Shown: one piece after another, positions 3,930 to 40,548 of the stretch
Layout: each line of letters starts with the position of its first letter
How positions within the stretch are numbered: position 1 is the first letter of the stretch
Origin: Omnitrophica bacterium GWA2_41_15
GTDB taxonomy: Bacteria > Omnitrophota > Gorgyraeia > Gygaellales > UBA12090
Assembly: GCA_919902675.1 (NCBI GenBank)
Contig: CAKKRH010000009.1
Location: 21,035 to 85,034, forward strand
Length of the DNA: 64,000 nucleotides
Reading direction: 5' to 3'
The notes under the pieces: generated by a model
Seen by the model: the letters and a program-made list of their open reading frames with translations, nothing else
Told to the model about the DNA's origin: nothing
The model's database searches: none
Made by a program: the position numbers and the translations under genes

Positions 3930-5267
3930 TCAGCTAATTCTTTCCGCGATAAGGCCGTCCTTATGAATCTTTAGCGGCCGGACATTAATGATTGTATTTA
4001 CCGAAATCTCCGGACTCTTGCGGAGAAATACCTTGATATAATTTCCGCTGTGGCCGGGTAAAAATCCATCATCCGCGAAGCCGCCTTGCGATTCAACTAA
4101 TACTTCCAGATTTTTACCAATATACTGCCGGCAGAAATCCCGCGCTAATTCCTGAGCCAATTCCCGCGTCTCTTTTATCCTGTCTTTGACCATCTCAGGC
4201 CTCACTGTTGCCGGAAATCTCCAGGCGGCCGTATTCTTGCGCGGGCTAAAAGGAAAGATGTGTATCTTTGCCGGGCGTGTTTCTCTTAAAAAATCAAGGG
4301 TATTCTTAAAATTTTCCTCTTCTTCTCCGGGAAAACCCAGCATAATGTCGGTAGTCAACCCAATATCCGGCACAAGCCTCCTTAGCTTAAGGATTAAATC
4401 ACGGCAATCTTCAACTGATGCCTTGCGGTTCATCAACTTCAATAGTTTATCATCCCCGCTTTGAAAAGGAATATGCAGATGAGGCATCAGCTTCTTAGAA
4501 GAAGCCATCTTTTCTATCAGGCAATCGCTGACATCCAGGGCTTCAATTGAACTAAGCCGGATACGCGAAATCCCGTCAATCTCTTCTAAGGTTTTAATAA
4601 CCTCAACTAAGCCGTCTTTAAGGCCAAGATCCTTTCCATAAGCGCCTAAGCAAATCCCGCAAAGCACTATCTCCTTATAGCCATTCCCGGCTAAACCCCT
4701 GGCTTCCTTAACTATCTCAGCCAAAAGCCGGCTGCGGGAGGAACCGCGTAATTTGGGAATTACGCAGTATGAACAGCCATTATCGCAGCCATCCTGAACC
4801 TTCAAGAAAACCCGGGTATGCTTATGGAAATTGCTGATGGTTGGTTTTTCAGTATCGGCAGGCCCCGTTAGAAGCCTTTTGCTACTTCCAGATTGCTCTA
4901 CAGTTTCCAACGGGGCAGGCGCCAAGCCGCCATCCTTTAAAATAAAATCGGCGAGACAATCCTTCTCTTGGTTACCTAAAACCCCTGTTACTCCCTCCAT
5001 CCGCTTTAGTTTCTCCGGATCGTTTTCCGCGCAACAGCCGGTAACAAAAACCCGGGCCCGAGGGTGAGAGCGATAGAGTTTGCGAATCTCCTCTTGAGAT
5101 AAAGTATCCGCCCTGCGGGTAACCGCGCAGGTATTCACTATATACACATCCGCGCCAAGCAAATCATTATTCTCCCTGAATCCCAGCTCGATCATCCTTT
5201 CCCTGAGAGCCTGGCTTTCATATTGGTTAACCTTACAACCTAAAGTCTTAACCTCAAATGTCTTCAT
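3930..5267 (-). CDS. mtaB: tRNA threonylcarbamoyladenosine methylthiotransferase MtaB (radical SAM MiaB family)
   Basis: N-terminus KTLGCKVNQYESQAL, radical SAM CDNGCSYCVIP, C-terminal TRAM-like region. Confidence 0.8.
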   Translation of the reverse strand: MKTFEVKTLGCKVNQYESQALRERMIELGFRENNDLLGADVYIVNTCAVTRRADTLSQEEIRKLYRSHPRARVFVTGCCAENDPEKLKRMEGVTGVLGNQEKDCLADFILKDGGLAPAPLETVEQSGSSKRLLTGPADTEKPTISNFHKHTRVFLKVQDGCDNGCSYCVIPKLRGSSRSRLLAEIVKEARGLAGNGYKEIVLCGICLGAYGKDLGLKDGLVEVIKTLEEIDGISRIRLSSIEALDVSDCLIEKMASSKKLMPHLHIPFQSGDDKLLKLMNRKASVEDCRDLILKLRRLVPDIGLTTDIMLGFPGEEEENFKNTLDFLRETRPAKIHIFPFSPRKNTAAWRFPATVRPEMVKDRIKETRELAQELARDFCRQYIGKNLEVLVESQGGFADDGFLPGHSGNYIKVFLRKSPEISVNTIINVRPLKIHKDGLIAERIS

Positions 5268-6113: not shown

Positions 6114-8414
6114 TTGTCAATAATGCCCATCATAATCTTCTGCTTAGGGTTAGGTTCAATTATCTCCCAGCTTGTCTTCCTGCGCGAACTGCAAACCACC
6201 TTTCAGGGGAATGAGCTATCCTTGAGCCTGATACTATTCTCCTGGTTGTTTGGTTCCGGAATAGGAGGCCTCTTAGGATCTTTTCTTTCCTCAAGGAAAG
6301 AAAAGTCTATCCATCCGGATTACCTCAAAAATTTATTAAGCCTCACCCTGCTATTGTCCGCTTTGTGGCTTTTTATCAGCCTGTTCCTCAGCCGCGGCTT
6401 AAAGCCAATTTTATCCATCAGTCCTTTTGAAATACTCCAGCCCGGGCAGATACTGCTGATTTCAGCCATAGTTATAGTCCCTCAAACAATTACCGTGGGA
6501 CTATCCTTCATCCTTATCTGTTCAATTATCCAAAATCCACTCAAGGCTTATCTTTTAGAGGCCCTGGGGGCGTTCTTCGCCGGACTATTAAGCCTTATCC
6601 TGATAAAATATTCTAACAGCTCTCAAATCATCTGGGGAATCGCGATAATTTACACCGCCTCCGGCCTCCTGCTTTTAAATAGAAAACGCCCATATTATCG
6701 GCTCCTGCTAATAATGTGGACCTTCTGCGTTATTTTATCTCTGACCATGCTGACCAAATTCCAGAAGGAGACACAAAATCTGCGCTTTGGGCCCCAAAAA
6801 CTTATTTACTCCACGGATTCCATCTACGCTAATATCGCCATTGTCAGAAACAATAACCACTCCTACAGCCTTTATGAAAACGGTAAGCTCTCCTTCTCAA
6901 CTGAAGACAGCGAATCCATAGAGGAATGGACCCATATGCTTTTACTCAGCCACCCCGCCCCGCGAAAGATTTTGCTTATCGGAGGAGGTGTTTCCGGGGT
7001 CATCTCCGAAATACTCAAACATCCAATTGAATCTATAGACTATCTGGAGCCGGATAAAAAGCTGATAGAAGCTGTCCTGAAACATATCCCCCAAAGCGCC
7101 TCTTATGGCCTTAAAGATAAGAAAATAACTATACATAATCAAGACGCCCGAATTTTCATCAAAACCGCTCCTGACAAGCCAGAGGGCGGTGGTTTGGCTT
7201 CCAATAGCCAAAGCCATAAATACGACTTAATTATTCTAAATTTGGGCGGCCCCTCAAGCCTTCAGTTAAACCGTTTTTACACCAAAGAATTTTTTGAAGA
7301 AATAAAAAAGATCCTAAACCCGGAAGGCAGATTCTGTTTTTCTTTTGAATCTAAAGAAGATATCCTCTCCGGACAACTCCTGAAATATAACACCTGCCTG
7401 TATAAAAGCGCCCAATCGGTATTCCCTTATCTTCAACTTATTCCCGGCGAACGCCTGACCCTGATTGGCTCAAGCCGGGCACTACCCAAGATTGTTCCGG
7501 AAGACTTAAGCCAAAGATTTAAAGAAAGAAACATCCTAACCGCATACTTTACGCCATACCATATCAAGGCAAAACTATTCCGGCAGGAATATATCCAAAA
7601 AAAACTGGAGGAAAATTCTCATATTACCGGCATAAGCCCCGTTAGAGATATGACACCAAAGGTATCTGGACGCCCCGCCTTTGGCGGGGCTATCTCTAAC
7701 GGGGTAAACCGCGATTATCATCCTTTGGGTTTTTTCTCTTATTTGGCCTTACGGGGAAAACAAGGCTGGCTGAATTTCAACCGGATTTGGGAATTCGCCG
7801 GAAAAATAAAACTGATTTATGGCTTTGGCTGTATGGAAAGCCAAACCATTGCCTTACTGGCTTACTGGATTAGCGCGGCCCTAATCCTCGCCGGTTTTGG
7901 ACGCGGGCATATTCTTAATCTGTCCGTCTTTTCCAGCGGCTTTTACGGCATCAGTTTAGAAATAATTATCAGCCTGCTCTTTCAGATAAATCTGGGCTTT
8001 CTTTATTATCGCCTGGGGATGATTGTGGCTAATTTTATGTTAGGGCTTTCCTTAGGGGGTATCCTGTTTATACGCTTAGAGAAAACAGGGCTATCCTGGA
8101 AAAGGGCGTTATTCTTATCGGAAATAGCCTTAGGAATTATTTCTCTCTCTTGCGCGTTTATCTTAAAAGATAACCAACTCGCTTATTTCCTGCTTACCTT
8201 ACTGGTTGGAATTATAATCGGCTTTGAATTCGGGATATTCTACAGCCGCGAAAACACAATTACTGTTTATATTTTAGATTTGTCCGGGGCCTGTCTGGGG
8301 AGCCTGCTCACCGGCTTAATCCTTGTTCCGGTATTAGGCGTATATAACACCTGTTTACTTATTTCATCCGGCAAGTTTATCAGTGCTTTTTTTCTGAGAA
8401 TACAAAAGCGCTAA
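6114..8414 (+). CDS. Polytopic membrane protein fused to a spermidine synthase-like (SAM-dependent aminopropyltransferase fold) domain
   Basis: 766 aa. Has N- and C-terminal TM bundles. The central domain reads ILLIGGGVSGV..DYLEPD..IHNQDARIFI..YDLIILNLGGP..FYTKEFFEEIKKILNPEGRF. This is the only plus-strand gene. Confidence 0.7.
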   Translation: MSIMPIIIFCLGLGSIISQLVFLRELQTTFQGNELSLSLILFSWLFGSGIGGLLGSFLSSRKEKSIHPDYLKNLLSLTLLLSALWLFISLFLSRGLKPILSISPFEILQPGQILLISAIVIVPQTITVGLSFILICSIIQNPLKAYLLEALGAFFAGLLSLILIKYSNSSQIIWGIAIIYTASGLLLLNRKRPYYRLLLIMWTFCVILSLTMLTKFQKETQNLRFGPQKLIYSTDSIYANIAIVRNNNHSYSLYENGKLSFSTEDSESIEEWTHMLLLSHPAPRKILLIGGGVSGVISEILKHPIESIDYLEPDKKLIEAVLKHIPQSASYGLKDKKITIHNQDARIFIKTAPDKPEGGGLASNSQSHKYDLIILNLGGPSSLQLNRFYTKEFFEEIKKILNPEGRFCFSFESKEDILSGQLLKYNTCLYKSAQSVFPYLQLIPGERLTLIGSSRALPKIVPEDLSQRFKERNILTAYFTPYHIKAKLFRQEYIQKKLEENSHITGISPVRDMTPKVSGRPAFGGAISNGVNRDYHPLGFFSYLALRGKQGWLNFNRIWEFAGKIKLIYGFGCMESQTIALLAYWISAALILAGFGRGHILNLSVFSSGFYGISLEIIISLLFQINLGFLYYRLGMIVANFMLGLSLGGILFIRLEKTGLSWKRALFLSEIALGIISLSCAFILKDNQLAYFLLTLLVGIIIGFEFGIFYSRENTITVYILDLSGACLGSLLTGLILVPVLGVYNTCLLISSGKFISAFFLRIQKR
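7637..7704. repeat. 68-bp nested palindrome inside the CDS
   Basis: The outer 14-bp arms CCCCGTTAGAGATA / TATCTCTAACGGGG are perfect. The inner hairpin is GCCCCGC-CTTTG-GCGGGGC. The motif TCTAACGGGGTAAA(CC) recurs at 14209..14222 and 29371..29386. Confidence 0.85.
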
Positions 8415-22455: not shown

Positions 22456-22806
22456 CTATTCTATTTCCGCGCTGACAGTTATATTTTCGCCTTCGGTGTC
22501 CTCGGCTACCTCAATGCTTGAGGTTATATTAACCTGGCTTATATTATTGTTTGTAGAGTTAGTGGTCCAAGTAAAAAGGGACACGCTGATATTGCTATCC
22601 GGGATGTCTATTGTTGTGGCATTGGTGTCTAAAAAACCGGCGCGCAGGTAAAGATCGCCATAGCGCATAGCTTGAAGCTCCGCATTCATAATGGCCTTAG
22701 AGACAAAATCCTTATTCACCAGCCTGTAGACATTTGGGGTAAAACCAATAAACACCGCGCTTAAGGCAAAGCAAAACATCAGGATTACAGAAACTATAAA
22801 AATCAT
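22456..22806 (-). CDS. Cassette 1, gene 6: small membrane-anchored protein (PilX-like position)
   Basis: 116 aa. N-terminal hydrophobic helix. ATGA overlap with the upstream gene. No counterpart in cassette 2. Confidence 0.6.
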   Translation of the reverse strand: MIFIVSVILMFCFALSAVFIGFTPNVYRLVNKDFVSKAIMNAELQAMRYGDLYLRAGFLDTNATTIDIPDSNISVSLFTWTTNSTNNNISQVNITSSIEVAEDTEGENITVSAEIE

Positions 22807-23375
22807 TCTTTTACGTTAGTGAACCAAAAACTCATACTTTCCTGCCTGGATACCTGGGTGTCCAAACGCCCGGCTATGCCGGTAGCATTGATAAGCACGG
22901 TGAGCACATTGGGCTCATTGGGAAAAACATAGCTAAAGAGTATCTGTGGGTTATATTTACTGTCAACCAGGGTTTCGTTGATAACCTCCAGACTTACGGG
23001 GTTAGTGGCATTGCGGATAAAGTTTCCCTGTCCGTCAATGTAATAACAATAACCTAAATTATCGCCAAGTTTATTTGGGGTGATGTTATAGATGTCTGCC
23101 TCGCCTTCGAAACAATACGTTCTGTTCTCGGATAATTTAAGCGGACTTTCAGTAAACAAAGAGGCGTTCTCCACCCTCACCGCGCTTAAGGTATGCAGAT
23201 GGATATTCTCCAGGGCATAGGCAATCTGCAAGCCGACATTACCACGCTCGATATTAGCCCTGGTCTGGGCAAAAATAAAATTATACCCGGCCATTGCCGC
23301 GGCCAAAGTAACCCCGCAGAGTACAATCGCTATGATCAATTCCACTAAAGTCAGGCCGAGTTCTTTTCTTATCAT
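22803..23375 (-). CDS. Cassette 1, gene 5: minor-pilin-like protein (prepilin-type N-terminus)
   Basis: MIRKELG|LTLVELIIAIVL when started at the internal ATG. The ORF track extends the frame to 23408. Confidence 0.7.
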   Translation of the reverse strand: MIRKELGLTLVELIIAIVLCGVTLAAAMAGYNFIFAQTRANIERGNVGLQIAYALENIHLHTLSAVRVENASLFTESPLKLSENRTYCFEGEADIYNITPNKLGDNLGYCYYIDGQGNFIRNATNPVSLEVINETLVDSKYNPQILFSYVFPNEPNVLTVLINATGIAGRLDTQVSRQESMSFWFTNVKE

Positions 23376-23416
23376 AAGCCAGGTCTTACGCTCCGGGACT
23401 AAGACCAAACCCCCTG

Positions 23417-24337
23417 CTACTTCACTTCGGTAGCAAGTATGGATAATATTGCTTTTCTAAGAGTGATTCTGGTGTTCGTGTATCCTGTGGTATATTCATA
23501 ATCATCGGTAGTTTTATTCACAGTCGGCCGATCATAATACCATTTTATTTCAATTCTATTATCATTTCTGGAAGTCACGTTTTCTATTACCGCCACGTTA
23601 TTAAATGAAGCCTGAGTTCCTATAGGCGTGCGCGCCTCAACACCAGCAATGTAGGGGCTGGTGAGACCGTTACTAAAAAAACAGGCTGAATAAATAGTAT
23701 CAATAGTATCAATCTCTGTCGCGTTGTCAGTGCTGTTTGTGCCAACGCTCACGCTATAAGCAACCTCTATATTCTTTTTTGTCGCGAAGTCAAGCTGAGT
23801 GCCGTTAAGCATTAATGGCTCGCCAACAGACTCACCTATGGTTGTGTAGTTTTCCAATATAGAAGTGTCGGTTTGATTGGCAAAAGGAACCTCATCGCCA
23901 GCGCTATTAAGGATATTCTTTGCAGCTGTATGTGAGAATGGATAAGGAACAATATTGGTCAGGCGGATATTTTTAGTATCTAAGCCTCCATTGCCATCTT
24001 CCTCCTGATAAGAAACCACCACCTCTATGTCCCTATAGGGCATAGTTGTATTTGTGACGTTTTTGGTAACCACTATGGCAGTCCAATTATAAAAATCCTC
24101 CAAATCCTCCAAATCCTCCTGGCCCGACAGCGAGAAATTATTTAAAATATCATAACCACGTTGTGAATATTCTTCCATCTTACTGGAAGCTAGCCCCATA
24201 GCCTGGCTGCGGAATTCCGCCTGTCTCAAAAAACGCTTGCCGGCAACCACCGTAACCCCCAAAGCCCCCAAACCCACCATTATCAGCAAAGCACTGACAA
24301 TTACCTCCAGAAGAGTAAATCCTTTTTCCTGATCCAT
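23417..24337 (-). CDS. Cassette 1, gene 4: PilV-like minor pilin, sequon-rich
   Basis: 306 aa. MDQEKG|FTLLEVIVSALLIMVGL. Many N-x-S/T sites. Confidence 0.75.
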   Translation of the reverse strand: MDQEKGFTLLEVIVSALLIMVGLGALGVTVVAGKRFLRQAEFRSQAMGLASSKMEEYSQRGYDILNNFSLSGQEDLEDLEDFYNWTAIVVTKNVTNTTMPYRDIEVVVSYQEEDGNGGLDTKNIRLTNIVPYPFSHTAAKNILNSAGDEVPFANQTDTSILENYTTIGESVGEPLMLNGTQLDFATKKNIEVAYSVSVGTNSTDNATEIDTIDTIYSACFFSNGLTSPYIAGVEARTPIGTQASFNNVAVIENVTSRNDNRIEIKWYYDRPTVNKTTDDYEYTTGYTNTRITLRKAILSILATEVK

Positions 24338-24352
24338 CTAGTTTATAATTCC

Positions 24353-25357
24353 TTACTCGTCTTGATTTGTAACAGGAAAAACGGAAACTATCAGATTGCG
24401 CTGGTTCTTCGGGCTTCTTATTCTCATTGATGTCTCATTATACCATCTAATCTCAAAATAAACATCATTGGGAATCCTCCCATTGGCAAAGTCAGAAGGA
24501 ATAAGCACATAACCACCGGTAATGGTAGGATCACCGATATTAGTCACACTCCCCTTACCAGCCGAAGGAACGGTCATCTCGGCTATCTGGCCCACAGGAA
24601 CAAACTCCCCGGAAACATATGAAACAGTCCCATCATCCGCAACCTGTTTAACTCCGTTACCGGGCGCGTCACTTTTAACATACAATTGAGTCTTAAGCGG
24701 CCCCTCGATAAATTCCTGATAGGAAGTACCATGATGGGGATGACAAATAAAAGGCCATACCGCGACCAATCTGCCGGAACCCTCCACGCGCACGGTCCAG
24801 GTAAAGGATATTTTAGTTATATTCCTGTAGCCCTTAGCCGATCCTGTAGTCCCTTCTAATCCGGGGATAAGTTGATATTCACCTTTGACTAAACTAACTG
24901 TGCTTGGCTGCGGAAGACCGCTGGTAGTATAGCCATTTTCTTTACAAGGAAAATATACATTCGGGCAATTACCGCCCCCATCGCAGGTCCTGATGGTTTG
25001 AGCGCAATTACTATAATTAGACTCACCGTCATCCACACAACCAGAACAATTATAAGGATACAAGTTCTTAGCCCATTTCTCGCCAGCAACTACACTTGTG
25101 GATGTCCAGCGATCCTTTCCTCTCCATTCTCCGTCAATTTGTTCATTTAAATAATCCGCGCATGTAGGGTTATCGTCGCTGTCATCATCATAGAAATATG
25201 GAAACATTGTCGGTTCCAGATAAGCGTCATCCGTTCCAATAAGTTCCTCAATAGTTAAAGGTTTGCTGGGAGTAGTTACCGCTTCATCCGCGGCAAGGCA
25301 GCAACCTACCATTAAAAAAATAATAAAAACTACTCCGAAAAAATTTATCTTTTTCAT
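24353..25357 (-). CDS. Cassette 1, gene 3: secreted Cys-containing protein, unknown family
   Basis: 334 aa with a signal peptide. Its paralog is at 29412..30407, with a conserved C-terminal half (GQIAEMTVPS.GKG..NIGDPTITG.YVL.P). Confidence 0.75.
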   Translation of the reverse strand: MKKINFFGVVFIIFLMVGCCLAADEAVTTPSKPLTIEELIGTDDAYLEPTMFPYFYDDDSDDNPTCADYLNEQIDGEWRGKDRWTSTSVVAGEKWAKNLYPYNCSGCVDDGESNYSNCAQTIRTCDGGGNCPNVYFPCKENGYTTSGLPQPSTVSLVKGEYQLIPGLEGTTGSAKGYRNITKISFTWTVRVEGSGRLVAVWPFICHPHHGTSYQEFIEGPLKTQLYVKSDAPGNGVKQVADDGTVSYVSGEFVPVGQIAEMTVPSAGKGSVTNIGDPTITGGYVLIPSDFANGRIPNDVYFEIRWYNETSMRIRSPKNQRNLIVSVFPVTNQDE

Positions 25358-25416
25358 CCTAAGGCCCTCCTTAAATGAACACCGAACAAAAGAACAAATA
25401 AATGCTTAGCCAAGAA

Positions 25417-27099
25417 TTATTCTCTCACCGTGGTAATAATTAAACTAATATGGTTAATCTCCACCTGATAATTTGTGGCCTCATCCTCAGAAGTAGTAGT
25501 TGGATCATCTATATTCCTATTCATAAAATAATAAACCCGGACTTCATAACGCTTCCCTGGCCAAAGGTATGGGCCAGGCGGAAAGGTATCTTTAGAAACA
25601 AGGGTTGTTCCGTATATAGAAAACGCGGCATTTAAACTCTTTTGATGAAGAGCGCTGCTGTAAAGCGTAGTGCCAAAAGTAGGGTCAAATACTTTAATCA
25701 TAGTATAGAACTTATCGCTCGAATTCTTTGCCTCACCAAGGGGTGTGGTATTAATCTGCCAAACTACATTATAAGACTCACCGGTCTTAGCTACAAAACT
25801 ATACCGCAGATTGCTATCTATTTCCTCAAAACAACTATCTGTATTTCCCAGGAGGCATTCTTCCGCGAGCTGACGAAGCGTAGCGCAATCACCTGCCGTG
25901 GCATTATAACACTCAGGACTAACGGTTAATCTCTTTTCACATTTTCTATCTTTGCAATTCTGCACATATCCGTCTGAGCAAACCGCGCGCTTACAGCACT
26001 CCACCCTATCCTTGCATTCCTCGTATTCATCGGCATAATCAGTGCACGTATCAATACAATTCTTAAATGTTGAATTAAGGCTGTAGATATAAGACTGAAT
26101 ATAGGGCGTAGTGGTACAGGTTGCGGTTGCCGTGCAGGGAGTAGGAGTGCAGGTTGGACAAGGAGGAGGAGAAGGGCAAGGTGTCGGAGGAGGAGGACAA
26201 GGCGGAGGAGTAGGACAAGGCGGCGGCGTGCAAGGTATAGGACAGTTCTGAGGTTGCGAACATGTCGTAGGAGCGCAGGATGACAAGCCTGAACTGCACG
26301 AGGGAGTCGGGGGGGTGCAGGTTGGATAACACTGAGCATTACATGACTGCGTGGTTGTGCATGAGGGGGTAGTATTAGCCCACACATAGGCTATATCATA
26401 ATAAGGGGCTTGATCGCATCTAAGCGGACCGGGATTCGAAGAACAAGCCTGAAAAGAAGGACTACTGCTTGGGGTGCAAGTTGATGTTTTCGGGCAGGTC
26501 CAAACCCTATTCTTACCGGTTCCTATTATAGCGCATCCTGAGCAACCTGACGGCTCCAGCTCATCACTAAATTCATCCGGACAGCCCCGCCTTTTCAGGC
26601 CATAAGGACTACCGCTATCTACCGAACCATTAGCATTACAACTAAGATACGGTTTATTCTGGCCGACACAACCATCTGAATCATCGTCGCGATTTCGCGA
26701 ACCACAATCACTACAACTATCATCAGTATCTTCATAATCACACTTGGTTAACCCACAATCTTCGATTTTAAAAGGATTCTCAGTGCAAGCATAATCATCC
26801 GTTATATCGTTTTCACTGCATTTAATTACTTTAGGAGCACCAGTCAAGCAACAATTCGGACAGCTTTCACTTAAGCTAACGCAGTAATCACACCTAAAAG
26901 CCCTCCTGGATTGGGTTGAACAGGCGGCACAAAAAATATCCTCTTTTGTCAGATCACCGCTATCATAATCTTTTGAAACTATCTGAAGGTCATGAGCAGA
27001 GGGCAGATATCTTATGCGTTTATCTTTAGAATAGGCCTGGCTGCTAAAGAAAGCCGAGAACACCAAAAGTAATGCTAAAGCCTTCTTATTCTTTACCAT
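25417..27099 (-). CDS. Cassette 1, gene 2: large cysteine-rich secreted protein with a Pro/Thr/Cys low-complexity insert, unknown family
   Basis: 560 aa with a signal peptide and dozens of Cys residues in CxxC or CC patterns. Its paralog is at 30427..31770. The start overlaps the pilin stop (caATGGTAAag). Confidence 0.75.
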   Translation of the reverse strand: MVKNKKALALLLVFSAFFSSQAYSKDKRIRYLPSAHDLQIVSKDYDSGDLTKEDIFCAACSTQSRRAFRCDYCVSLSESCPNCCLTGAPKVIKCSENDITDDYACTENPFKIEDCGLTKCDYEDTDDSCSDCGSRNRDDDSDGCVGQNKPYLSCNANGSVDSGSPYGLKRRGCPDEFSDELEPSGCSGCAIIGTGKNRVWTCPKTSTCTPSSSPSFQACSSNPGPLRCDQAPYYDIAYVWANTTPSCTTTQSCNAQCYPTCTPPTPSCSSGLSSCAPTTCSQPQNCPIPCTPPPCPTPPPCPPPPTPCPSPPPCPTCTPTPCTATATCTTTPYIQSYIYSLNSTFKNCIDTCTDYADEYEECKDRVECCKRAVCSDGYVQNCKDRKCEKRLTVSPECYNATAGDCATLRQLAEECLLGNTDSCFEEIDSNLRYSFVAKTGESYNVVWQINTTPLGEAKNSSDKFYTMIKVFDPTFGTTLYSSALHQKSLNAAFSIYGTTLVSKDTFPPGPYLWPGKRYEVRVYYFMNRNIDDPTTTSEDEATNYQVEINHISLIITTVRE

Positions 27100-27464
27100 T
27101 GGCTACATTCCTTCCAGATCGTGTTGTTACGATTAGTGATAGTCATATTCATCCCGCTGCAGGCCAGACCAGAACCCTGGCGCTTAGCCGTGGCGTTAAA
27201 ACTTGGGCTAGTGGTGGTGGCAATAGAATAAGTAAAGCTATCTCCTTCCAAGGTAATCCCTAAATTCGCGGTATCGTTAGTATATGCTCCCTCATCCAGA
27301 TAATATCTCTGCTGGGCAGTGTAGATTAGGCGCAGGTTGGCCTCGGCTTCTTTGGCCATATTTTTTTCTGAAGACCGGCTAAAATTGCCCATATTCAGGC
27401 TAACCAGAATTCCGATAATCACTAGAACCACTAAAAGCTCAATCATGGTAAACCCCGTTTTCAC
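27093..27464 (-). CDS. Cassette 1, gene 1: type IV pilin-like protein (GTG start)
   Basis: 123 aa. MKTG|FTMIELLVVLVIIGIL. C-terminal Cys pair. Confidence 0.8.
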   Translation of the reverse strand: MKTGFTMIELLVVLVIIGILVSLNMGNFSRSSEKNMAKEAEANLRLIYTAQQRYYLDEGAYTNDTANLGITLEGDSFTYSIATTTSPSFNATAKRQGSGLACSGMNMTITNRNNTIWKECSQW

Positions 27465-27580
27465 TCAATAAGCTCCCTTAGGCGCGATAAATCGCGCCGC
27501 TACCTACTTGCACAAATTGCTACGATAAATCGCGCCGCTTAGCGAAACGAATAACCACAACAAGCTTTTAAAAACTCTTG

Positions 27581-27646: not shown

Positions 27647-27736
27647 GTCGGTGCGCCAGGCTACCCTATCCTTCCTTAAAAGACTTAGGTCCTTTAGCTT
27701 TGCGCCATGCGGTTTCCCGCATTTTGCCCCGGCCTT
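27647..27736 (-). ncRNA. GEMM-I (c-di-GMP-I) riboswitch aptamer, copy 1
   Basis: This 90-nt RNA contains GGCAAA, a 6-bp helix capped by GAAA, GGCGCAAAGC, a CCUAAG tetraloop-receptor half, and GGGUAGCCUGGCGCACCGA. The blocks are colinear with the Vc2 aptamer as I recall it. Confidence 0.65.
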
Positions 27737-27800
27737 AATTTCCTATGCCGGCCTGCCGCCTTCTTAGATTACACGGCAGATTTTCGGATGTTGTAATTAA

Positions 27801-27974: not shown

Positions 27975-28449
27975 CTATGGCCGTGGCATTAATAAGCGCA
28001 TGAACATGTTAGGCTCATTGCCGGACACATAACTAAAGGTTATTTGTGGCTTATATCTACAGTCAAACAGGGTTTTATTGGTAGTCAGGCCACTGGTAAT
28101 ATTAGTAGCATTGAGCATAAATTTATCACCTGAACCAAGGTAATAATAATCTATACTATCGTTATACTTATTAGGCGTGATATTATAGACGTCTTGCTCA
28201 TCCAAGAAACAAAATACAAACGCGCTTGATTTACTTTCGGTAAACATAGAAGCGTTTTCCACGCTCACCGCGCTTAAGGTATGCCGATGGATACTCTCCA
28301 TGGCGTAGGTGATCTGCAAACTGGCATTGCCGCGTTCCATACTACTCTTTATTTGAATAAAAATAAAGTTATGCCAAGCCATGGCCGCGGCGCTGAGCGC
28401 AATCGCTGCAATCAATTCCACTAAGGTCAGCCCGCTCTTTTTTTAACAT
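27975..28449 (-). pseudogene. Cassette 2, gene 5: minor-pilin-like gene, damaged at both ends
   Basis: ATG at 28449 followed by an A7 run gives MLKKER... out of frame. Deleting one A restores MLKKSG|LTLVELIAAIAL. The C-terminus ends early relative to the 22803 paralog after a local indel. No gene 6 equivalent follows. Confidence 0.65.
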
Positions 28450-28464
28450 AAACCCGGGTTTTAT

Positions 28465-29403
28465 TTAGTCCACCTCAGTAGCGAGTATGGATAATTCGGC
28501 TTTTCTCAGGGTAAGATTAGTATTCGCGTATCCTGTGGTATATTCATAATTACCGGTGGTCTGATTTATTGTCGGCCGGTCATAATACCATTTTACCTCA
28601 ATTATATTATCGCCGCGGGGAGGCACGCCCTTTAACACCACCATATTATTAAATGAAAGCTGGGTTTTTATGGGGGTGCGCGTCTCTACACCGGTGGCAT
28701 TGGTAGTGGTGCCATTACCATAAAAACAAGTTGAATAGATAGTATCAATAGGCTCTATCTCTGCCCCGTCATCAGTGCTGTCTATGTCCGCCGCAACGCT
28801 ATAAGAAACCGCTATATCTTTAGTGGTCGCGAATTCAAGCTCATCGTTTTTCAGCCTTAATTGACCTACAGTTTGATAATTAGGTAAAATAAATTTAGCA
28901 TTTTGAATAGCAAAAGGAACCTTCGCGCTGCTACTCGGAATGGCCCTTGAAGCTGTATGCGCCGTGGGATAGGGAACAATATTGGTCAGACGGATATTTT
29001 TAGTGTCTAAGCCGCCGCGGCCGTCTTCCTCCGGATAAGAAACAATCACCTCCATATCCCTATAAGGTATAATTGTAGCATTGGTAGTGTTGCGGGTAAC
29101 CACACTGACGGTCCAGTTATAAAAACCTTCCCGGCCCGATTGATTACCGCTTAAAACAGCATAACCCCGGGCCGAATATTCTTCCATTTTGCTGGTAGCC
29201 AGGCCCATAGCCTGGCTACGGTATTCCGCCTGCTTCAAAAAACGCTTGCCGGCCACCACGGTAACTCCGAAAGCCCCCAGCCCAATCATTATCAGCAAAG
29301 CGCTGATCATCACCTCCAGAAAAGTAAACCCCGATAGAAGCATCTTATTTCTTCCAGGCTGTTCCATAGCTTCTAACGGGGTAAACCCCTTTTCCTGACC
29401 CAT
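28465..29403 (-). CDS. Cassette 2, gene 4: PilV-like minor pilin with a partly duplicated N-terminus
   Basis: 312 aa. MGQEKGFTPLEA followed by MEQPGRNKMLLSG|FTFLEVMISALLIM. Paralog of 23417..24337. Confidence 0.7.
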   Translation of the reverse strand: MGQEKGFTPLEAMEQPGRNKMLLSGFTFLEVMISALLIMIGLGAFGVTVVAGKRFLKQAEYRSQAMGLATSKMEEYSARGYAVLSGNQSGREGFYNWTVSVVTRNTTNATIIPYRDMEVIVSYPEEDGRGGLDTKNIRLTNIVPYPTAHTASRAIPSSSAKVPFAIQNAKFILPNYQTVGQLRLKNDELEFATTKDIAVSYSVAADIDSTDDGAEIEPIDTIYSTCFYGNGTTTNATGVETRTPIKTQLSFNNMVVLKGVPPRGDNIIEVKWYYDRPTINQTTGNYEYTTGYANTNLTLRKAELSILATEVD

Positions 29404-29411
29404 CTAATTTA

Positions 29412-30407
29412 TTACTCCTCACTCCTCTGGCTGGTAACGGGAAAAACAGTAACTACCAGATTGCGCTGGTTCTTCGGGCTTTTTATCCTCATTGAGGTCT
29501 CATTATACCAGCGGACCTCAAAATCAACGCTCAGAGGAACCCTTTCTGTGGCAAAATCAGCAGGAACGAGCACATAACTGCCGGTAATGGTAGGATCCCC
29601 AATGTTACGAACCCCACCCTTTCCGGATGAAGGAACGGTCATCTCGGCTATCTGCCCCACCGGGGCATACCCATCGTTAAAAGGACTTGGATATCTTGTG
29701 CCTTTAACATACAATTGAGTCTTAAGCGGTCCGGCGGGAAATTCCTCATCGACAGTGGCGTGAAAAGGACTGCAAAGATAAGGAAATACCGCGAGTATCC
29801 TCGAGGAGGCCTCTAAGCGCACTGTCCAGGAAAAGAGTACTTTGGTGATATTCCGATAGCCTGCGTACAGTTGGACGTTCCCGGACAATCCAGAGATAGC
29901 CTGATATTCACCTTCATCTAAATCTTCAGTACTTTCATTCGGCACACCATCAGTATCCCAACCGTTTTCTTTACAAGGTTTATATATATCTTGACATTTG
30001 CCTTCACTATCACAAGTCCTTTTGGCTCGAGCACAATTACTATAGTTGCAATATATACCTACTTTCAGACTACAATCAGTATTAAGAAATTGCTTTTGAG
30101 ATTCGCCAGTTTTATCTTCATATGGATTGCTATAAGCAGCCCATATGCCTCCAGCTGTAGATATGGGCGTCCAACGGTCCTTTTCGCTCCACTCGTCAAT
30201 ACATTTGGAGGTTTCACCAAGGCCTCCATCAACATAATTGTAGAATTTCGGAAACATGGTCGGCTCCAGATAGGCGTCCTTCTTTCCGATAAACTCCTGA
30301 ATAGTTAAAGCTTTACCCGGGGTGGTTACCGTTTCATCCGCGCCAAAACCACACCTGACCAAAAAAAAACTTATAAAAATCATCCCGGAAAAAAATATTT
30401 TTTTCAT
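29412..30407 (-). CDS. Cassette 2, gene 3: secreted Cys-containing protein, unknown family
   Basis: 331 aa. Paralog of 24353..25357. Confidence 0.75.
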   Translation of the reverse strand: MKKIFFSGMIFISFFLVRCGFGADETVTTPGKALTIQEFIGKKDAYLEPTMFPKFYNYVDGGLGETSKCIDEWSEKDRWTPISTAGGIWAAYSNPYEDKTGESQKQFLNTDCSLKVGIYCNYSNCARAKRTCDSEGKCQDIYKPCKENGWDTDGVPNESTEDLDEGEYQAISGLSGNVQLYAGYRNITKVLFSWTVRLEASSRILAVFPYLCSPFHATVDEEFPAGPLKTQLYVKGTRYPSPFNDGYAPVGQIAEMTVPSSGKGGVRNIGDPTITGSYVLVPADFATERVPLSVDFEVRWYNETSMRIKSPKNQRNLVVTVFPVTSQRSEE

Positions 30408-30426
30408 CTTAAAACCCTCCTTGAAG

Positions 30427-31770
30427 TCATTCTCTTACCCGAGTAACAATTAGACTCATCCGCGTAATTTCTACCTCATAAGAAGTATCCTCATCATCAT
30501 TCATAAAGTAATAGACCCGAATCTGATAGCTTTTTCCCGGGCTAAAAGTACCTTTAGAAATAAGAGTTGTCCCGTATATGGAAAACGCGGCGTTTAAGCT
30601 CTTCTGATGCAGATTACTGCTATAATAAACTATCGTGTTAGACGCGGGATCTACCACCTTAACCATAGTATAAAACTTAGCGTTTTCGTCATTTTTAGCC
30701 TCTCGCAGGGGTGTGGTATTAATCTGCCAGATTATATTGTAGGCCTCACCGGTTCGAGCCACAAAATCATAGTACATATTGCGGTCTATTTCCACAAAAC
30801 ATTCATTCGTACCACCCTCAAGGCATTTTTGCGCATTCTGGTTGAGCCGGGCGCACTGGCCTGCCGTAGCCTCATAACACGCAGGCTTGACGGCTATTCT
30901 CTTGGCACAACCAGAGTCAGTACAATTAGCTTTATACCCGGTTTCGCAAACCGCGTGCTTACAGCACTCCACCCTATCCTTGCATTCCTCGTAGTTATCA
31001 GCATAAGTAGTGCAGGTATTAATGCAAGTCTTAAACGCGGAGTTAAGCTTATATTCATAAGAAGCACCTATAGCAGTTACCTCATAAAAAGAGGGCAGGT
31101 CATCACATCTGGATGGACCGAAAGTCTCGGAGCAAGGCTGAAAAGAAGGGCGGCTGTTGGGAGTGCAACTTGGTGTTTTCGGACAGGTCCAAACCCTATT
31201 TTTACCGATTCCTGTTATAGCGCATCCAGAGCAACCTGCCGGTGCCAGCTCAGCGCTAAACTCATCCGGACAGCCTCGATTCTGCAGGCCATAAGGAGAG
31301 CCGGACAAAACTAGACCTTTGCTGCATTTAAGAGTATGACATTGAGTCTCATCGTCATTCCCTCGCGAACCGCAATTAACGCAGTCATTATCGCTAGTTG
31401 TATAATCACATTCGGTTTGCGGGCAATCTTTGATCTTAAAAGGAGCCTCGGTGCAGACATAATCAGCCGATGTATCATCTACGCTGCACTTAATTACCCT
31501 GGGAAGAGTAGCAGTCAGGCAGCAATTCGGACACAATTCCTTTAAATCAAGACAATCATTACATTTTTTAGCTAATCTAAATAAACCTGAGCAACGGGAA
31601 CAATCAATCTCAGCTACTGCCTTTTCACCGGCAAGATAATCCCGTGAAACCATCTCAACCTCATGATTAGCCGGCATGTATTTAATACTCCTATCTCTTG
31701 AATAAGCCGGATGGTTAAAAGAAGCCAGTAACACCAGCAGTAAAATTAAGGCCTTTTTATTTTTTACCAT
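30427..31770 (-). CDS. Cassette 2, gene 2: large cysteine-rich secreted protein (no Pro/Thr/Cys insert)
   Basis: MVKNKKALILLL signal from the ATG at 31770, which has the same ATGGTAA overlap with the pilin stop as copy 1. The ORF track starts 9 nt upstream. Confidence 0.75.
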   Translation of the reverse strand: MVKNKKALILLLVLLASFNHPAYSRDRSIKYMPANHEVEMVSRDYLAGEKAVAEIDCSRCSGLFRLAKKCNDCLDLKELCPNCCLTATLPRVIKCSVDDTSADYVCTEAPFKIKDCPQTECDYTTSDNDCVNCGSRGNDDETQCHTLKCSKGLVLSGSPYGLQNRGCPDEFSAELAPAGCSGCAITGIGKNRVWTCPKTPSCTPNSRPSFQPCSETFGPSRCDDLPSFYEVTAIGASYEYKLNSAFKTCINTCTTYADNYEECKDRVECCKHAVCETGYKANCTDSGCAKRIAVKPACYEATAGQCARLNQNAQKCLEGGTNECFVEIDRNMYYDFVARTGEAYNIIWQINTTPLREAKNDENAKFYTMVKVVDPASNTIVYYSSNLHQKSLNAAFSIYGTTLISKGTFSPGKSYQIRVYYFMNDDEDTSYEVEITRMSLIVTRVRE

Positions 31771-32165
31771 TGGTCGCACTCCTTTTGAATAAGGCCGCCT
31801 TGATTGTTAATAGTCATATTCCTACCACTGCAGGCCAAACCGGAACCCGTGCTGCGCTTAGCCGTGGCGATAAAGCTTGGACTGGTGGTTGTGGTAATAA
31901 AATAGGTAAAATTAGTTCCTTCCAACTTAATTCCCAAATTCAAACTATCACTTATATCATCACAAGGTGAGGCGCAATTATAATATTTCCCTTCACCCAG
32001 ATAGTATCTCTACTAGGCAGCATAGATTAATTGCAAGTTAGCCTTCGCCTCTTTGGCCATATTTTTTTCTGAAGACCGGCTAAAATTGCCCATATTCAGG
32101 CTAACCAGAATTCCGATAATTATTAAAACTACTAATAGCTCAATCATAGTAAACCCCGTTTTCAC
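31764..32165 (-). pseudogene. Cassette 2, gene 1: pilin-like gene with two adjacent in-frame amber codons
   Basis: Manual translation: VKTGFTMIELLVVLIIIGILVSLNMGNFSRSSEKNMAKEAKANLQLIYAA**RYYLGEG... TAG TAG at 32010..32015 aligns to CAG CAG (QQ) in the copy at 27093..27464. Confidence 0.75.
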
Positions 32166-32243
32166 TCAATAAGCTCCCTTAGGCGCGATAAATCGCGCCG
32201 CTTAGCGAAACGAATAACCACAACAAGCTTTTAAAAACTCTTG

Positions 32244-32282
32244 AAATAAAAAAGCCAAACTCTCCTTCGTAGGATAGCTTGG
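32244..32282 (-). terminator. Intrinsic terminator of the riboswitch leader (copy 2)
   Basis: Same sequence as 27581..27619. Confidence 0.6.
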
Positions 32283-32309
32283 TTTATGCACCTTTTTGAA
32301 AGCTGCGTT

Positions 32310-32562
32310 GTCGGTGCGCCAGGCTACCCTATCCTTCTTTAACCCGGAATTTGCAATAGTAATGGCATTCGCCGCCAAATAAGGGCGCATCTTCGTCAGA
32401 AAAAAGCGCTTACATACTAAAAGTATGCGCGCACTTTTTTCTGCCAAATCTACACCCTTCTTTGGCGTCTCGGTGCCGCATTCCTATTGCAAAATCCGGG
32501 TTTAAAAGACTTAGGTCCTTTAGCTTTGCGCCATGCGGTTTCCCGCATTTTGCCCCGGCCTT
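32310..32562 (-). ncRNA. GEMM-I riboswitch aptamer, copy 2, interrupted by a 162-bp MITE
   Basis: The two aptamer halves match copy 1 except for one substitution beside the insertion site. They are separated by the element at 32341..32502, which is inserted between the CCUAAGUCUUUUAA segment and the 3' strand. Confidence 0.6.
32341..32502. mobile_element. MITE-like hairpin element (long form)
   Basis: Terminal inverted repeats AACCCGGAATTTGCAATAGTAATG / CATTCCTATTGCAAAATCCGGGTT. It is flanked by TTTAA on both sides. The empty site is visible in leader copy 1 (ccttccTTAAaagac). Confidence 0.8.
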
Positions 32563-32626
32563 AATTTCCTATGCCGGCCTGCCGCCTTCTTAGATTACAC
32601 GGCAGATTTTCGGATGTTCTAATTAA

Positions 32627-40499: not shown

Positions 40500-40548
40500 A
40501 ACCCGGAATTTGCAATAGTAATGGCATTCCTATTGCAAAATCCGGGTT
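40500..40548. mobile_element. MITE-like element, minimal form (inverted-repeat pair only)
   Basis: AACCCGGAATTTGCAATAGTAATGGCATTCCTATTGCAAAATCCGGGTT, flanked by TTTAA on both sides. These are the same termini as 32341..32502. Confidence 0.8.

Follow-up and report, generated by a model that had tools for sequence, protein, structure and literature searches.

A miniature inverted-repeat element in the P2 loop of a predicted c-di-GMP-I riboswitch heading one of two tandem pilin-like operons of an Omnitrophota bacterium

Introduction

The peripheral loops of riboswitches are assumed to be free to vary, a freedom exploited by engineers, and natural cases in which a mobile element supplies an extra helix seem to be undocumented. 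The locus described here lies in a 64,000-nt stretch (the window) of Omnitrophica bacterium GWA2_41_15 (GenBank assembly GCA_919902675.1, contig CAKKRH010000009.1, positions 21,035 to 85,034, forward strand), a Hainich groundwater Omnitrophota contig. Two tandem leaders of the window are predicted riboswitches of class I for cyclic dimeric guanosine monophosphate (c-di-GMP), and the upstream one carries a miniature transposable element of the inverted-repeat type (MITE) inside its aptamer. The reading preferred here, to which a probability of roughly 0.55 is given on the basis of comparison and folding, is that the MITE is a recent, near-neutral passenger, which the aptamer would accommodate as an extension of its helix P2 with the switch logic largely preserved.

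In the Vc2 aptamer, two long-range interactions connect P1b and P2, a tetraloop/receptor contact and one C-G pair (PMC11705072). As in the c-di-GMP-I family (GEMM-I, RF01051, e.g. Vc2 of Vibrio cholerae), the leaders of the window are built from two hairpins, with the GGCAAA and CGCAAAGC junctions, the GAAA loop of P1b and the receptor in P2, and an intrinsic terminator follows downstream. They differ from the family in the 3' half of the receptor, which is UAGGG instead of the canonical UAUGG, and, in copy 2, in an insertion of 163 nt (the MITE and one duplication) in the terminal loop of P2.

The Correia elements of Neisseria (Correia repeat enclosed elements, CREE) are MITEs of about 100-160 bp which are co-transcribed, form long hairpins and have post-transcriptional effects, such as RNase III cleavage at their repeats (PMC10969869). 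The element of the window is similar in its small size, inverted repeats and long hairpin, with unrelated sequence, and no Correia insertion inside a riboswitch aptamer was found in the literature searched. Correia elements duplicate TA, in contrast to the 5 bp duplicated here. The predicted RNA of another small interspersed repeat, located for the most part close to the 3' ends of genes, resembles an intrinsic terminator (PMC3184786, PMC10969869); the present MITE is unrelated to it in sequence and host and adds classic inverted repeats and a target duplication, and its terminator activity is putative.

Geobacter uraniireducens has a MITE named Chunjie, which was recently active and was recognised because it occupies one of two recently duplicated operons, the other of which shows the empty site (PMC10969869, PMC3184786). 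Chunjie is 178-235 bp long, has 9-bp direct repeats and lies between genes of a phosphate-uptake operon, whereas the present MITE is inside a riboswitch; Chunjie disrupts the phosphate-uptake operon and is not in a GEMM riboswitch. Reviews only speculate that riboswitch-like or terminator structures could be formed by MITEs, and full-text literature searches on MITE together with riboswitch or aptamer turned up no case of an aptamer with a MITE in it.

The tandem c-di-GMP-I leaders

The Rfam search of the window gave two RF01051 aptamers. Both lie on the minus strand, and each belongs to one of the type-IV-pilin-like operons. The segments needed for their comparison are the following.

27647-27738, minus strand: aptamer copy 1, unoccupied (Rfam RF01051, 52.5 bits)
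32461-32564, minus strand: aptamer copy 2 as called by Rfam (RF01051, 37.3 bits)
32501-32564, minus strand: 5' segment of aptamer copy 2 (Rfam alignment; 100% identity to copy 1)
32310-32342, minus strand: true 3' segment of aptamer copy 2 (identity to copy 1 at 27647-27679)
27503-27540, minus strand: 38-nt segment in the expression platform, one unit of a 17-nt-anchored direct repeat

The gathering threshold of RF01051 is 35 bits. The match on copy 2 is mis-threaded: its 5' half is right (32506-32564), its 3' half is MITE-internal (32461-32500), and the Rfam alignment contains many non-canonical pairs. The real 3' half is found at 32310-32337 and is identical to 27647-27674 of copy 1. This is an annotation hazard, Rfam still scoring the interrupted aptamer with wrong boundaries.

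The 5' segment of copy 2 contains, in order, the GGCAAA junction, the P1b hairpin AUGCGG-GAAA-CCGCAU, the CGCAAAGC junction and the 5' strand of P2 with the CCUAAG half of the receptor and the distal UCUU. The 3' segment continues with the distal AGGA, the UAGGG half of the receptor, the P2 3' strand GGUAGCCUGGC and the CACCGAC tail. Both copies thus have a GNRA tetraloop, GAAA, closing AUGCGG/CCGCAU, and in P2 the receptor CCUAAG...UAGGG, a one-base variant of the 11-nt tetraloop receptor.

Pairwise alignment showed 100% identity of the two leaders, from about the transcription start to the N-terminus of the pilin, apart from three differences: leader 2 alone has a block of about 163 nt, a single base adjoining the insert is C in copy 1 and T in copy 2 (plus strand), and the 38-nt segment is restricted to leader 1 in this strain. 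Without the insert, copy 2 equals copy 1 but for one loop base, and every conserved aptamer nucleotide is intact and identical to that of the unoccupied paralog. The split aptamer of copy 2 qualifies as RF01051 through this identity, and both leaders are, as judged from sequence, c-di-GMP-I riboswitches and ordinary members of the family, for which ligand binding is predicted.

An orthologous, unoccupied c-di-GMP-I riboswitch (51.8 bits) was found in another groundwater metagenome (contig L021), in a syntenic position between a DUF2582 gene and a pilin-like gene. It has 10 extra nucleotides in the very same P2 loop, which suggests that the length of this loop is naturally variable. In a co-occurring Hainich relative (L022), a c-di-GMP-I riboswitch was not detected in the intergenic region between the DUF2582 gene and the pilin gene (1548-1941) even at E = 1, so that riboswitch control of the pilin operon would not be universal in the clade.

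The inserted element and its family

The boundaries of the element, and a second member of its family in the window, are given below.

32343-32500, no strand assigned: MITE core, 158 bp (terminal inverted repeats, hairpin, alignment with 10 other copies)
32338-32342, no strand assigned: left target-site duplication, TTTAA
32501-32505, no strand assigned: right target-site duplication, TTTAA
40497-40551, no strand assigned: second family member, a 45-bp arms-only derivative (40502-40546) with its own TTTAA duplications

The terminal inverted repeats are 17 nt long and match at 16 of 17 positions (left, CCCGGAATTTGCAATAG; right, as the reverse complement, CCCGGATTTTGCAATAG). A hairpin extends inward from them, and the RNA of the MITE is one long imperfect hairpin with a minimum free energy (MFE) of -90.7 kcal/mol (z = -13.9 relative to shuffled sequences). 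The repeat motif occurs five times in the window, against 0.4 expected; the 45-bp derivative is intergenic and lies directly past the terminator of an 83-aa gene. The element is non-coding, the only open reading frame (ORF) across it being a spurious 81-aa call in the public gene predictions (32202-32447, minus strand), which crosses the MITE and the 3' half of the riboswitch and is an exact-match tag for the junction.

A scan of publicly available genomes and metagenomes for a 22-nt pattern of the repeat gave nine further distinct full-length copies together with partial copies and remnants. The family comprises 11 distinct copies and five partial copies or remnants, all intergenic and at unrelated loci, from Candidatus Omnitrophota metagenome-assembled genomes (MAGs) and from groundwater metagenomes including Hainich, with at least five in the MAG E14_concoct.bin.43. 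The copies are 93-98% identical. The flank differs for each copy, and each of the 11 has its own A/T-only direct repeat of 5 bp (TTTAA or TTAAA in eight, ATAAT or ATTAT in three), perfect in 10 of the 11 and imperfect (4/5) at locus L008. Inverted repeats with individual duplications are the signature of DDE-type transposition and, on this sequence evidence, not of a repetitive extragenic palindromic (REP)-like sequence.

Two of the copies have neighbourhoods of some interest. At locus L003 a 203-bp copy, duplication included (3988-4195), ends exactly at the 3' end of an RNase P RNA gene (4196-4566, 180 bits), and the same locus holds a tRNA gene with a group I intron (6845-7200). At locus L015 (318-505), downstream of a cupredoxin-domain gene, a copy occupies the loop of a GC-rich hairpin, GGCCTCT-TTTAA-TAT-AGAGGCC; this parallels the insertion in the riboswitch loop, and the family may favour A/T pentamers where they form part of a loop on a GC-rich stem. 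No other MITE copy near a riboswitch was found among 18 loci.

Empty sites and junctions

The empty site was found in the paralogous leader 1, as CTTAA at 27675-27679, one base off TTTAA, and the orthologous riboswitch of L021 is likewise without the element. The substitution adjoining the insert converts CTTAA to the pentamer preferred by the family. With its inverted repeats, 5-bp duplication, non-coding nature, multiple copies and empty site the insert is, by its structure, a genuine MITE, the autonomous parent alone being missing. The family, of an ordinary kind and with a clearly TTTAA-type 5-bp target, is apparently undescribed and recently active in Candidatus Omnitrophota.

The contigs L009 and L010 (ERZ1292620) match the window at 99.95-100%, L010 at 100% with both junctions spanned. 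L011 (ERZ2470813), an independent SPAdes assembly of 99.7-99.8% identity, shows the MITE in an unchanged position and includes its two junctions, and L029 (ERZ1292618) starts within the element and extends across the 3' junction.

An earlier sequence-only reading of the window had described the two leaders as colinear apart from a 38-bp indel (27503..27540) and a 162-bp hairpin element (32341..32502), with TTTAA on both sides and an unoccupied site visible in copy 1, and had taken the element for a MITE inside the second aptamer and the leader for a riboswitch. The alignment, the duplications, the site in copy 1, the copies of the family and the RF01051 match (direct for copy 1, by identity for copy 2) agree with that description, to which the one adjoining base has to be added; the hairpin was confirmed and the size was not, the core being 158 bp. 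An assembly artefact, against which it had warned, is contradicted by the two assemblies that span both junctions and the third that spans one. The strain-level polymorphism that it had proposed to look for was not seen, exact-protein look-ups in three assemblies giving no leader 2 allele without the MITE.

Insertion site and predicted folding

The MITE lies between the 5' strand CCUAAGUCUU and the 3' strand AGGAUAGGGUAGCC of the tetraloop-receptor hairpin, which is P2 under the GEMM and P1a/P1b/P2 naming schemes but is labelled P3 in one scheme based on a crystal structure. The insertion point is the terminal loop of this hairpin, 4 bp (UCUU/AGGA) beyond the receptor, and the strands of P2 are 163 nt farther apart in copy 2 than in copy 1 (158-bp core and one 5-bp duplication). 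Since both P1b-P2 contacts map proximal to the insertion point, the MITE helix, emerging from the tip of P2, should be directed away from the docking interface.

In the MFE structures of the whole leaders P1b, P2 and the terminator were kept in both copies, the MITE hairpin of copy 2 being stacked on distal P2. The pair probabilities of the aptamer-only ensembles hardly differed, being 0.67-1.0 for P1b and 0.73-0.78 for proximal P2 in both copies, and 0.85 versus 0.77 for distal P2 in the two. The sequence-only reading had offered two outcomes, destruction of the aptamer or extension of P2; at the level of secondary structure, folding with and without the insert supports the extension and speaks against destruction.

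The switch itself involves two segments downstream of the insert.

32244-32282, minus strand: leader 2 terminator, CCAAGCUAUCCU-ACGA-AGGAGAGUUUGG, -12.3 kcal/mol, followed by CUUUUUUAUUU
32319-32331, minus strand: P2 3' strand UAGGGUAGCCUGG, antiterminator partner of the terminator 5' strand at 32270-32282 (truncated-transcript MFE, constrained folds)

In transcripts truncated before the 3' strand of the terminator, an antiterminator of 9+3 bp was predicted, in which the P2 3' strand UAGGGUAGC-C-UGG pairs with CCA-A-GCUAUCCUA; it was obtained for both copies, along with the terminator hairpin and its U-tract. The ortholog in L021 has an equivalent terminator element and the same complementarity between aptamer and terminator. 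The predicted logic is that of a transcriptional OFF switch. When no ligand is bound, pairing of the P2 3' strand UAGGGUAGCCUGG with the 5' strand of the terminator would give the antiterminator, and the ligand, by locking P2, would let the terminator form. With the respective pairs enforced, the antiterminator was favoured over the aptamer fold by 6.0 kcal/mol, both in copy 1 and in copy 2 after excision of the MITE in silico; with the MITE in place this margin was 4.3 kcal/mol, a shift of 1.7 kcal/mol toward the aptamer fold.

Operon context and age of the insertion

Each leader heads an operon with a type-IV-pilin-like gene and genes for a large Cys-rich protein, an unknown protein and N-methyl pseudopilins. 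The tandem paralogous operons extend over 22456-27446 and 27975-32147 and encode the pilin, the Cys-rich protein (447/560 aa), a protein of 331/334 aa, a pseudopilin of 306/312 aa and more. The first genes are:

27093-27446, minus strand: intact type-IV-pilin-like gene after leader 1, 117 aa (Pilin_GH and ComP_DUS)
31764-32147, minus strand: pilin-like gene after leader 2, with in-frame TAG TAG at 32010-32015 (codons 45-46; CAG CAG in copy 1)

The ORF of the leader-2 pilin is otherwise open, and both stops are kept in L011 and L029. Recoding of TAG was considered and rejected, TAG being a normal stop which ends 8 of the 39 long ORFs in the window, and the gene is likely a pseudogene, as judged from its sequence. 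Compared with its paralog in operon 1 (22803-23408, 201 aa), the last gene of operon 2 (27975-28421, 148 aa) lacks a prepilin-like segment at the N-terminus, the truncation falling at the boundary of the duplication. In the low-coverage Hainich assembly L029, a TTA to TAA change (about 846-848) introduces a nonsense codon in the 447-aa gene (window 30427-31770), which may represent population-level decay or a sequencing error. The 447-, 331- and 312-aa genes of operon 2 are otherwise intact in the window and well diverged from their paralogs, which points to long-term maintenance.

The coding regions of the two operons are about 74-78% identical at the DNA level, whereas the leaders and the pilin N-termini are 100% identical; gene conversion would therefore be recent and limited to the 5' end, and the leaders appear to be undergoing homogenisation by it. 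In L011 the conversion tract differs, leader 2 having the 38-nt segment and a copy-1-like pilin N-terminus. The insertion is probably young because its flanks are still identical to leader 1. With a pseudogene as the first gene behind it, and with the truncated last gene and the nonsense variant of L029, it is in effect free of selection. The sequence-only reading had seen in this pair a natural test of riboswitch tolerance; the matched leaders lend themselves to experiment, but by itself the test is a weak one, and the persistence of the MITE is no evidence of functional tolerance, since the insertion is recent and the downstream gene dead.

Interpretation

The MITE, a member of a family with A/T-only 5-bp duplications, usually TTTAA, transposed into the P2 terminal loop of the upstream leader. 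In the transcript it would fold on itself and stack on the 4-bp distal stem of P2, giving a helical extension of about 75 bp away from the docking interface, and the aptamer would still be able to form and to bind c-di-GMP. Since the shift in balance is only about 1.7 kcal/mol, leader 2 probably keeps its logic. The damage would be at most quantitative, with some premature stops at the central hairpin-U6 of the MITE or some RNase III cuts in its duplex, and the element should be read as a tolerated passenger rather than as an adaptation. A bolder statement, that leader 2 continues to work as a c-di-GMP riboswitch with a receptor helix lengthened by about 75 bp by a transposon, is less likely than not.

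Several points weigh against the reading of the MITE as a tolerated passenger. Nearest-neighbour folding leaves out tertiary structure and kinetics. Neutrality cuts both ways, since a loss of regulation, too, would carry no penalty when the first gene is dead. At about 17-20 bp, the duplex of the terminal repeats resembles the substrates that RNase III cleaves in Correia-containing mRNAs (PMC10969869). Moreover, the centre of the MITE resembles a terminator.

32398-32440, no strand assigned: MITE centre, bidirectional terminator-like module of A6, a 29-nt hairpin (32406-32434) and T6; in the leader RNA the hairpin is followed by UUUUUUCU

The module has the same reading on both strands, and its hairpin, calculated at -11.7 kcal/mol as leader RNA and -11.5 kcal/mol on the other strand, on paper equals the native terminator while lying upstream of the decision point. 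A further point is the 5' repeat of the MITE, complementary at 11 of 12 positions to the aptamer core GCAAAAUGCGGG (32489-32500 with 32542-32553), for which a rough estimate of the chance expectation is 0.03. Enforcing this helix in nascent transcripts costs 1.9-4.6 kcal/mol above the MFE, and it was the predicted fold at none of the nascent lengths tested. It may represent a transient co-transcriptional folding trap, or a coincidence.

The main rival explanation, which deserves real weight though it falls clearly short of even odds, is that the insertion inactivates leader 2, transcription stopping at the hairpin-U6 of the MITE or the RNA being cut by RNase III, so that operon 2 is silenced or uncoupled from c-di-GMP by one more lesion in a decaying copy. 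The A6-hairpin-U6 module is near-invariant in the family as well as equal in stability to the native terminator, and the location of the copies is in line with this reading: 11 of 11 are intergenic, a distance of 9-154 nt separates most of those checked from the end of the nearest upstream gene, and one lies directly against the RNase P RNA gene at its 3' end. Decay of operon 2 is visible in the two pilin stops, the truncated last gene and the nonsense variant of the second gene in one assembly, and for Correia elements it has been documented that RNase III cleaves mRNAs in which the MITE is present (PMC10969869). However, the three longer genes of operon 2 remain intact after long divergence, and the hairpin of the MITE centre includes a 2x2 internal loop. 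A simple terminator scan also missed the MITE centre, but it called the native terminator no more than this module and does not discriminate between them.

Other members of the family also argue against this rival. Copies were found 15 nt upstream of ribD (L012, 1300-1457), 116 nt upstream of dnaA (L005, 2336-2493) and between prs and the L25 gene, rplY, 69 nt upstream of the latter (L019, 1903-2060). Efficient termination at such places would be lethal or costly, which argues that the element is not an absolute block to transcription. The three genes have to be transcribed through the MITE or out of it, and the TTGCAA of the terminal repeat may act as an outward -35 box. At the riboswitch, TTGCAA has no usable -10 in the flank as judged by eye, and an outward MITE promoter driving operon 2 was rejected, a scan of the minus strand giving no sigma-70-like site.

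An improbable alternative is that the MITE alters the set-point of the switch, so that the two operons respond differently to c-di-GMP: clamping of P2 would bias leader 2 to the terminated OFF state at low c-di-GMP, or mispairing of repeat and core would bias it to read-through. The first would be in line with the shift of 1.7 kcal/mol toward the aptamer fold, and the second with the 11/12 complementarity, the small cost of the alternative helix and the wider separation of the P2 strands. The class c-di-GMP-I has high-affinity ligand binding, from which a large free energy is expected, and set-point effects would be small relative to it. Moreover, the alternative helix never becomes the predicted nascent fold, and there is no sign of selection for divergence, the first gene being dead and the flanks identical to those of copy 1.

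An origin of the insert as an artefact or chimera of assembly, or its being no transposable element, is very improbable and was rejected: repeats do break assemblies (L029 starts inside the element, and the contigs L018 and L020 end in it), but the junction occurs in three independent European Nucleotide Archive (ENA) assemblies, two of which, made with different assemblers, span both of its sides, each of the eleven copies, which lie at unrelated loci, is flanked by a 5-bp direct duplication of its own, and the paralog and the ortholog both show the empty site.

Search for a parent transposase

Scans of the genome, the metagenomes and viral contigs found no autonomous parent or transposase associated with the inverted repeat of the MITE (CCCGGAWTTTGCAATAG ends); that of the viral contigs, made with the 17-nt repeat, gave isolated chance matches only. 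At 1503-2108 of an Elusimicrobiota MAG contig (L004), a solo MITE-type repeat interrupts the remnant of an IS30-like transposase and is followed by a truncated Zn_ribbon_IS1595 ORF, an arrangement that looks like a nest of mobile-element debris. IS1595 is unsupported as the parent: the ORF has only five homologs, all short, and the two looked up, P0012 and P0015 (four loci), have no such repeat nearby.

The Tn3 and IS1380 (ISEcp1) families make 5-bp duplications in A/T-rich targets, e.g. TTATA, ATATA and TATGA (PMC2887853). The MITE likewise duplicates 5 bp in an A/T-rich target, and these families are candidate mobilisers, as a lead only. The ends of Tn3 are typically GGGG, unlike the CCCGG with which the repeat of the MITE begins.

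Significance

The riboswitch is ordinary and the MITE family new, and their combination is rare and neat without amounting to a system of a new kind. Its biological weight is limited, with a pseudogene downstream and a young insertion. The two leaders nevertheless form a matched pair, which differs by the MITE, one adjoining base and the 38-nt indel of the expression platform. If leader 2 is functional, the locus would be a natural demonstration of a mobile element absorbed into an aptamer without loss of function. The duplicated operon may then gain a different dose-response or a MITE-borne attenuator, and insertions of this type would represent one route by which the peripheral helices of riboswitches grow.

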